From the IMG/VR virus record IMGVR_UViG_3300009149_007415: 11,199 bases of DNA. One strand, written 5' to 3'. Source of the stretch: a virus. Within the stretch, counting starts at the first letter, position 1. Each line of letters opens with the position of its first letter. The notes under the pieces are model-generated. The model made no database searches and was not told the DNA's origin. It saw only the letters and a program-made list of their open reading frames with translations. The translations under genes were made by a program, and so were the position numbers. This document shows, in pieces, positions 266 to 1,285 of the stretch.

Positions 266-1285
266 ATGTACCAAGTGAATTTAATTAAAAATGTAAAGGT
301 ACCAACAGGAAATATTTGTGTAATGGAGGGTGAAAAAGGCCCTATCGAATTTCTGGTAGTTGGTGATTATGGACAAGGAGTAAATGTAAAAGCTGATTTC
401 CTTGGATTAACTGATGAACTAAATGGTGTTCCAAATGGAGACATCATGTCTCTCACTGAAAAAATGGTAGTCACAATCAGCACTCAATATGGGTGTTCAA
501 TGAATTGTAAATTCTGTGATGTCCCTAAAGTGGGTCCTGGAACTAATGCTACTTATTATGATATGCTAAATCAGATAAAAGCTGGATTGGCATTGCATCC
601 TGAGTTGGATTATACCAAAAGACTTAACATCCACTTTGCAAGGATGGGGGAACCTACTTTCAATGGAAATGTCTTGGATGTAGCAGCTTGTCTAAGAAGA
701 AACATTTACGACTTCTGGAATAAGAGCGGAACCATCCATCCGGTAGTTTCCACAATGCTCCCTAAGAATAATAAAAATCTTTTAAAGTTTCTTACTGTCT
801 GGACTGAAGATATTAAGAATAGATTATATCATGGTGAAGCAGGATTACAATTTTCCATAAATAGCACTGATGATGATCAGAGAAATGAAATGTTTTCCGG
901 CAATGCTTTAACTTTGGAAGAAGTTGCAGACCTTGGGAAACAACTCCCAATTCCGATAGGAAGGAAATATGCACTAAATTTTGCTTTAGCAGATGACTAT
1001 GTAATAGATGCTCAGAGGTTGAAGGACCTTTTTAACCCAGAAGATTTTATGGTTAAGATAACACCATTACACAAAACTCAAAGCTGTGATGACAATGGTA
1101 TTCAAACCACAAATGGATATGAAGCTTTCACACCCTATAAAGAGAAAGAGAAAGCTCTAAAAGAAGCTGGATTCGATGTAATTGTATTCGTTCCCAGTTA
1201 TGATGAGGATTTAGGAATGATTACATGTGGTAATGTTATTCTATCCGGTAATTTGCCAAAAACAGAATATAAAAATTTGATTTGA
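266..1285 (+). CDS. Radical-SAM enzyme of the RlmN/Cfr family (RNA adenine C2/C8 methyltransferase-like), 339 aa
   Basis: CX3CX2C radical-SAM motif: GCSMNCKFC. Surrounding RlmN-type signatures: ISTQYGCSMNCKFCDV (compare VSSQVGCALECKFCST), NIHFARMGEPTFN (compare NVVMMGMGEPLLN), and the C-terminal DVIVFVPSYDEDLGMITCGNVILSGN (compare [21 protein letters not shown]). The last of these contains the methyl-carrying Cys. No Cys lies 7 residues upstream of the cluster, where RlmN C118 would be. Confidence 0.75.
   Translation: MYQVNLIKNVKVPTGNICVMEGEKGPIEFLVVGDYGQGVNVKADFLGLTDELNGVPNGDIMSLTEKMVVTISTQYGCSMNCKFCDVPKVGPGTNATYYDMLNQIKAGLALHPELDYTKRLNIHFARMGEPTFNGNVLDVAACLRRNIYDFWNKSGTIHPVVSTMLPKNNKNLLKFLTVWTEDIKNRLYHGEAGLQFSINSTDDDQRNEMFSGNALTLEEVADLGKQLPIPIGRKYALNFALADDYVIDAQRLKDLFNPEDFMVKITPLHKTQSCDDNGIQTTNGYEAFTPYKEKEKALKEAGFDVIVFVPSYDEDLGMITCGNVILSGNLPKTEYKNLI

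Follow-up and report, generated by a model that had tools for sequence, protein, structure and literature searches.

A phage RlmN/Cfr-like radical-SAM protein belongs to a large clade that keeps only one of the two class A cysteines

The IMG/VR virus record IMGVR_UViG_3300009149_007415 contains a stretch of 11,199 nucleotides (nt), hereafter the window, in which an open reading frame (ORF) encodes a radical S-adenosylmethionine (SAM) protein related to the RNA methyltransferases RlmN and Cfr (Table 1). We found that this protein shares homology and fold with RlmN/Cfr and keeps the cysteine that carries the methyl group in these enzymes, and that it has lost both the resolving cysteine and the N-terminal domain. 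The one-cysteine pattern is a property of the whole clade, beyond the gene of the window. In phages, the gene has no conserved tRNA or partner context; in cells, its relatives occur in a conserved gene cassette and in gene fusions. We tentatively favour the reading that the class A radical-SAM methylases have a large sister clade, of which this protein is a phage member, working with one cysteine on a small-molecule substrate.

Two conserved cysteines define the class A radical-SAM methylases, and C118 of RlmN is indispensable to resolve the crosslink formed during catalysis: it acts as a general base, after which a one-electron reduction takes place, and the enzymes become stuck in covalent adducts with the RNA in the variants RlmN C118A and Cfr C105A (PMC9692996). 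In the window protein, Thr70 occupies the C118 column, with no insertion or deletion up to the cluster, in three independent alignments (phmmer against PDB chains, a family profile against PDB, and MAFFT with E. coli RlmN from NC_000913.3). C321 falls in the column of RlmN C355 in the last two of these, and the profile alignment matches the family's IgsnCGQ to IsaaCGQL of RlmN. A cysteine seven residues before the cluster is found in none of the 333 complete family members (120 close clusters, 50 representatives, 82 phage loci and 81 cellular loci), 316 of which keep the C-terminal CG motif (CGx). Position 70 is a threonine in 201 of 202 close phage-clade proteins. It is also a threonine in the 29 close homologues, where C77, C81 and C84 are invariant and conservation reaches 90% or more at C18, C274 and C321. 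With relatives as distant as 26% identity added (38 sequences), neither the three cluster cysteines nor C321-G322 vary. Given this invariance and the complete lack of a cysteine at position -7 in the 333 proteins, the missing resolving cysteine is not a matter of chance, and the conservation pattern indicates strong selection on the carrier-type cysteine.

The loss of the resolving cysteine had been noticed in the first-pass annotation of the sequence, and our alignments bear it out. The elements listed there (the ORF, the tRNA-Glu in front of it, CX3CX2C, MGEP, ITCGNV and an overlapping ORF of 55 residues) are likewise all present. The same annotation had asked whether C18 or C274 (numbered 272 there) could replace the resolving cysteine. 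This is not supported, since neither is conserved beyond the closest phages: outside this group, C18 is replaced by Y/L/F/I/V and C274 by A/S/T. There is thus no substitute cysteine.

The relationship to RlmN/Cfr, also proposed from the sequence at first pass, holds up: the best hidden Markov model (HMM), profile and fold matches are all RlmN/Cfr, and neither QueE nor an activase. The HMM evidence from the single sequence is weak. The Pfam model Radical_SAM (PF04055) gives 22.7 bits for a gathering score of 29.5, which some homologues exceed. The top NCBIfam models are those of RlmN and Cfr, at 25-30 bits over residues 62-149 only, far below cut-offs of 290-550; both equivalog cut-offs are missed (TIGR00048 RlmN, 29.5 bits vs 290; TIGR04432 Cfr, 27.1 bits vs 550). 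The motif and the fold leave no real doubt that this is a radical-SAM protein. In BFVD, the same fold is found in an uncultured Caudovirales "COG0820" protein and in Pseudomonas phage 201phi2-1. The protein matches the uncharacterised phage family phrog_24834 of PHROGs over its full length (E 1.9e-145, residues 6-338 vs profile positions 3-334 of 336). The family is large: at least 6,358 clusters at 90% identity pass an E-value of 1e-3 around the phage protein, and there are 640 clusters at 50% identity. The core of the phage clade is about 19% identical to RlmN and 33-40% identical to the cellular clades. Public names of these proteins are only "radical SAM protein" or the automatic "RlmN" label of the Joint Genome Institute (JGI).

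Of the class A features, the protein thus has the CX3CX2C core, the RlmN/Cfr-specific homology and fold, and the putative C-terminal carrier cysteine, C321; it lacks the second cysteine, the N-terminal helical domain and a score above the curated cut-offs. Because a defining feature of class A is missing and the scores are far below the RlmN and Cfr cut-offs, it should not be filed as RlmN. The earlier suggestion that its chemistry may differ from that of canonical RlmN is reasonable.

A helical domain ahead of the core is listed in the RlmN fold (PMC9692996, Fig. 2 legend). This domain (residues 1-80 or so) has no counterpart in the alignment of the window protein, which has about 65 residues ahead of the radical-SAM core vs about 115 in E. 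coli RlmN, in line with the short N-terminus (about 70 residues before the cluster) annotated at first pass. In the AlphaFold2 (AF2) model, these 65 residues make three predicted beta strands and a 25-residue segment of low confidence. The multiple sequence alignment (MSA) puts the beta unit where RlmN has extra beta strands, in a region where placement is uncertain. The segment that follows (residues 36-60) is an insert that is missing in RlmN and in the cellular operon clade and is partly there in relatives fused to a QueT domain. Its predicted local distance difference test (pLDDT) is below 50 at residues 36-59 despite strong sequence conservation, with K42, A43, D44, F45, L46, G54, V55, P56 and G58 invariant in the 29 close homologues; it is a candidate substrate lid. 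The pLDDT is also below 50 at residues 318-323 of the C321 loop, which is consistent with the mobile C355 loop of RlmN (PMC9692996). The family retains the equivalents of RlmN S120, Q151, M178-GEP, N184 and R242. Eight family-specific, near-invariant polar residues (D85, R126, Q195, T201, N238, K264, T266 and T271) line the barrel, replacing RlmN residues.

Table 1. Features of the window (numbering from its first nucleotide). The public gene call for an identical protein (P0001) uses an alternative GTG start at 275, three codons later, giving 336 residues.
Feature	Position	Strand	Basis
tRNA-Glu(UUC)	176-248		ARAGORN
RlmN/Cfr-like radical-SAM protein ORF, 339 residues	266-1285	+	ATG to TGA
N-terminal three-stranded beta unit, residues 6-32	281-361	+	AF2 strands E6-12, E15-22, E25-32; alignment with E. 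coli RlmN
Phage-clade insert, residues 36-60 (..NxKADFLG..NGVPNG..)	371-445	+	Conservation and low pLDDT
Thr70 codon, matching C118 of RlmN (resolving/base cysteine)	473-475	+	Alignments
C77-x3-C81-x2-C84, radical-SAM [4Fe-4S] cluster motif	494-517	+	Invariant; aligns with RlmN C125/C129/C132
M127-G-E-P130 motif, common to RlmN (M178-G-E-P181)	644-655	+	Alignment
I319-T-C321-G-N-V324 loop, equivalent of the RlmN methyl-carrier loop AAC355GQL (C321 codon 1226-1228)	1220-1237	+	MSA
ORF of 55 residues	1285-1452		
SiaC-family protein	1492-1875	+	PF09345, 4e-30
GOLLD RNA	2737-3215	+	Rfam RF02032, 157.3 bits vs gathering score 150, full model
tRNA-like element embedded in GOLLD RNA	2810-2879		Rfam tRNA, 45.5 bits; without ARAGORN call
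Major vault protein-like, 833 residues	5464-7965	+	MVP_shoulder 3e-28, Vault_3 1.8e-11, Band_7/SPFH
tRNA with anticodon CUA (amber suppressor; ARAGORN label "Pyl")	9550-9623	+	
DenV-like pyrimidine-dimer DNA glycosylase	9905-10243	+	PF03013, 1.1e-14; phrog_1183

The cellular relatives have a recurrent genetic organisation. A scan of GTDB species genomes revealed the cellular branch in at least 584 bacterial and archaeal genomes. In 73 of 80 GTDB loci, an isochorismatase-type hydrolase and/or a flavoprotein resembling thioredoxin reductase (TrxR) is encoded directly upstream on the same strand, and these 80 loci have no other conserved neighbours. The flavoprotein has no CxxC motif in the single example inspected. 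Called genes on long contigs confirm a three-gene cassette, with 4-nt overlaps or with the first two genes fused. The cassette (loci L012-L091; e.g., L180:3371-6023 and L178:3326-5987) occurs in many bacterial and archaeal phyla with variable flanks. Relatives at 30-40% identity also include fusions to three kinds of domains: isochorismatase (proteins P0208, P0228 and P0258), Pyr_redox_2, a flavoprotein of the pyridine-nucleotide-disulfide-oxidoreductase type (P0211), and QueT/ECF-S (the substrate-binding type of energy-coupling factor, ECF, transporters) together with a methylthioadenosine/S-adenosylhomocysteine (MTA/SAH) nucleosidase (P0154 and P0159). In the latter, the nucleosidase scores 224 bits (cut-off 169) and the QueT-family domain 39.8 and 37.0 bits (gathering score 33.7). 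Triple fusions of 814-820 residues, with a QueT/ECF-S-like membrane part, an RlmN-like part and an MTA/SAH nucleosidase, are encoded at L006:8001-10445 and L172:3423-5885. The QueT-fused genes stand alone in their bacterial genomes, and no cellular relatives are closer to the phage clade than their products (core identity 38-40%, vs 19% for RlmN). A riboswitch, which could have named a ligand, was found neither ahead of the L006 fusion gene nor in 13 cassette loci.

The phage genes are organised differently from one lineage to another. The window gene starts 18 nt after tRNA-Glu(UUC) and lies inside an array of 14 tRNAs within 21 kb. On the window's own 43-kb contig (L002), the 14 tRNA genes are found among small ORFs at 4926-19348 (Cys, Thr, Gln, two Pro, five Leu, two Glu, Tyr and a suppressor). 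This setting is idiosyncratic: no tRNA was found within 6 kb of the gene in any of 34 IMG/VR loci or in three others (those of phage Versailles, a jumbo phage and L004). The link to phage tRNAs drawn at first pass therefore does not extend to the 37 other loci scanned, and the Versailles copy is part of a replication/recombination module. The acidic 55-residue ORF, which overlaps the stop codon of the radical-SAM gene by 1 nt (TGATG) and had been put forward as a partner, was rejected as such: its product has no cysteine, and it has no homologue outside its own contig, with none in the 83 other phage loci carrying the radical-SAM gene.

Clustering of all ORFs in the 84 phage loci gave no conserved neighbour, the best cluster being present in 28 of them, all of one lineage. 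Recurrent neighbours in that lineage are YopX, DUF4406 and a Tad2-like/crAss001_48 protein. DUF4406, which resembles nucleoside deoxyribosyltransferases (cluster 4, 28 loci), is encoded directly downstream of the radical-SAM gene in 14 loci. The protein related to Tad2 (Thoeris anti-defence 2) and crAss001_48 (cluster 13, 19 loci; e.g., L163:4101-4820) is encoded about 3 kb upstream and belongs to one abundant IMG/VR phage lineage. The temperate Bacteroides phage Versailles has a 62%-identical gene between those for a ParB-like protein and a Holliday-junction resolvase, and the att-site tRNA is the only tRNA annotated. A role in 7-deazaguanine DNA modification was considered for this phage and discarded, as DpdA, TGT and que genes are absent from its annotation. 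A 312-kb phage contig (L003) has the gene among rIIB, NAD-salvage-type genes, an RNA ligase, PNKP and an ADP-ribosyltransferase. The group around this homologue (L003:1461-6464 and 13799-21014: PRPP-synthase-like, NADAR, NAMPT-like, RNA ligase, PNKP-like, ART-PolyVal and GmrSD_N) looks like a counter-defence island. In Yersinia, Salmonella and Vibrio phages, the relatives are more distant and are flanked by hypothetical genes. On two short metagenomic contigs (L173:2214-3383 and L175:1827-2996), a Cas12f1-like TNB (TnpB-type) gene is directly 3' of a 403-residue member (P0124). PADLOC matched none of the radical-SAM proteins to a defence system. Overall, the phage copy behaves as a free-standing accessory gene of early or putative counter-defence regions, without a dedicated partner.

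These data lead us to the small-molecule reading, with the following putative chemistry. A first SAM would methylate Cys321. A second SAM would be cleaved reductively to a 5'-deoxyadenosyl radical able to abstract hydrogen from S-methyl-Cys321, and the Cys-S-CH2 radical formed in this way would add to an N-heteroaromatic substrate at an electron-poor sp2 carbon. Resolution of the thioether adduct would do without a second cysteine: a putative non-Cys base would take the ring proton, the adduct would break apart, and a one-electron reduction of the Cys321 thiyl radical would follow. This proposed resolution fits the view of C118 as a base and not as a disulfide partner (PMC9692996), a view that makes a one-cysteine enzyme chemically plausible provided another base is present. 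The substrate is probably not one of the RNA sites of RlmN, A2503 or A37. It is more likely a metabolite or nucleotide of small size that resembles a nucleobase or a cofactor, given the partners of the cellular relatives: an amidohydrolase, a dedicated flavoprotein reductase, a transporter domain of the ECF/QueT type and an MTA/SAH nucleosidase. Further support comes from the lack of conservation of R206, the tRNA contact of RlmN (PMC5130265), the retention of just 5 of 40 RlmN core Lys/Arg positions, the isoelectric point (pI) of 5.1 (net charge -10) and the absence of a conserved tRNA or partner in phages. A bolder version, conceivable if rather doubtful, is that the phage proteins are a branch of an ancient one-cysteine class that adds a SAM-derived one-carbon unit to small N-heteroaromatics, not to RNA. 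Adenine-, nicotinamide- or 7-deazaguanine-type rings would be examples; a non-Cys base would resolve the thioether between enzyme and substrate, and a dedicated flavoprotein would supply the electrons in cells. Gut and huge phages would be users of this enzyme, altering the metabolite or nucleotide pool of the host, possibly in counter-defence.

Several points weigh against a small-molecule methylase. Methyl transfer through C321 is predicted from homology alone, and the only characterised relatives, RlmN/Cfr, act on RNA. The MTA/SAH nucleosidase and the flavoprotein are generic helpers of radical-SAM enzymes and say little on the substrate. The pI and the loss of Lys/Arg positions are weak indicators at 19% identity; E. 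coli RlmN itself has a pI of 6.6, which makes charge a weak sign of RNA binding or of its absence. The phage clade is 33-40% identical to the cellular clades and has its own 25-residue insert; its substrate could differ from theirs. Finally, the window gene is in a tRNA array, just after a tRNA-Glu(UUC) that has an A37 and is of a type that RlmN modifies (PMC5130265).

This last observation is an argument for an RNA adenine C-methyltransferase, producing 2-methyladenosine (m2A) or 8-methyladenosine (m8A) at tRNA A37 or in rRNA, with a non-Cys residue or solvent in the role of C118. Such an enzyme would agree with the closeness to RlmN/Cfr in sequence and fold, with the conserved carrier cysteine, and with the RNA ligase and PNKP tRNA-repair genes within 10 kb of the homologue of one jumbo phage. 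The tRNA or rRNA substrate suggested at first pass thus keeps its local support, the 18 nt that separate the gene from tRNA-Glu(UUC), but loses the wider one: the 37 other scanned phage loci have no tRNA within 6 kb, the Versailles homologue belongs to the replication module of a phage that has no tRNA set of its own, and the cellular relatives point to small-molecule chemistry. The helical N-domain of RlmN is absent, R206 is not conserved, the scores are about 10-fold under the curated RlmN/Cfr cut-offs, and the transporter-domain fusions and amidohydrolase operons of cells are hard to reconcile with an RNA substrate. We therefore regard this alternative as somewhat unlikely.

The cellular fusions can also be read in terms of a radical-SAM enzyme that does not methylate (a lyase, isomerase or reductase), in which the 5'-deoxyadenosyl radical would attack the substrate directly and Cys321 would be a hydrogen-atom donor or redox thiol. 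A single conserved cysteine is typical of hydrogen-donor roles in other radical-SAM enzymes. The QueT-domain and nucleosidase fusions assemble the same functional trio as QueK-QrtT-QueL of C. difficile. An example would be an enzyme of 7-deazaguanine salvage that is analogous but not orthologous to queuine lyase. The dedicated flavoprotein could provide reducing equivalents. We consider a non-methylating enzyme improbable. It is very improbable indeed that the protein is an inactive relic, or a dead-end, single-turnover protein trapped covalently on its target, even if the stalling of RlmN C118A and Cfr C105A as covalent adducts (PMC9692996) offers a precedent. Thousands of sequences are under strong purifying selection with invariant active-site motifs, and in cells the operonic company of a reductase and of a nucleosidase for by-products implies multiple turnovers.

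If the small-molecule reading is correct, the clade points to a new class of substrates for Cys-mediated radical methyl transfer. We know of only two activities among class A radical-SAM methylases, those of RlmN and Cfr, both on RNA. We found no description of such a one-cysteine clade in the literature searched, and nothing relevant on phage RlmN-like enzymes or on isochorismatase plus radical SAM plus RlmN. A very large natural clade manages without the second cysteine and the N-terminal domain, and offers a natural experiment on whether C118 is required for its role as a base or for disulfide formation. The automatic label "23S rRNA (adenine2503-C2)-methyltransferase" is probably wrong for these proteins, and in viromes it could lead readers to assume a viral gene for translation or, as with Cfr, for antibiotic resistance. 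The hydrolase/flavoprotein/radical-SAM cassette is a tractable route to the substrate. The clade should thus interest both radical-SAM enzymologists and those who annotate viromes.

The rest of the window contains other elements (Table 1). The ORF-poor stretch around the GOLLD RNA (approximately 2300-4100) is far longer than the Rfam match. The 833-residue protein resembles the major vault protein of eukaryotes; its homologues in the phage collection searched (50-53% identity, 98% coverage) are found only in LR756500, LR756501 and LR756503, records of uncultured huge phages of 462-735 kb, which suggests that the window derives from a huge phage. The tRNA with anticodon CUA may reflect recoding of the TAG stop codon in part of the phage genome; the ORFs of the window read through normally under code 11. 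The SiaC family is a family of phosphoproteins that regulate biofilms in Pseudomonas.

Among known systems, RlmN (the C2-methyltransferase of 23S rRNA A2503 and tRNA A37; PDB 3RFA, 5HR7 and 6FZ6) is the natural reference. The phage protein differs from it by Thr70 in place of C118, the lack of the helical N-domain, the 25-residue clade insert, a core identity of about 19%, eight polar barrel residues of its own, and the lack of conservation of R206 and of most core Lys/Arg positions in the family. Cfr (the C8-methyltransferase of 23S rRNA A2503; PDB 9P0P) has in C105 a residue without equivalent in the window protein, which scores 27 bits vs 530-550, and we found no evidence that the window protein has a Cfr-like role in antibiotic resistance. 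The queuine lyase QueL (PDB 6P78) is alike in being a radical-SAM enzyme tied to QueT-type transport and a nucleoside hydrolase in queuosine salvage, and a test for fold and sequence similarity between it and the window protein was negative. The cassette clade (Myxococcota, Chloroflexota, Planctomycetota, Thermoplasmata and others) shares the lack of a cysteine at -7, the loop (as SNCGQ) and the short N-terminus. It is 33-34% identical to the phage clade in the core, lacks the phage insert, and has hydrolase and flavoprotein companions that are missing from phage loci. The QueT-fusion proteins P0154 and P0159 have the carrier loop in the same TCGN variant as the phage clade and share part of its insert; they differ in being membrane-anchored, three-domain products of stand-alone bacterial genes.
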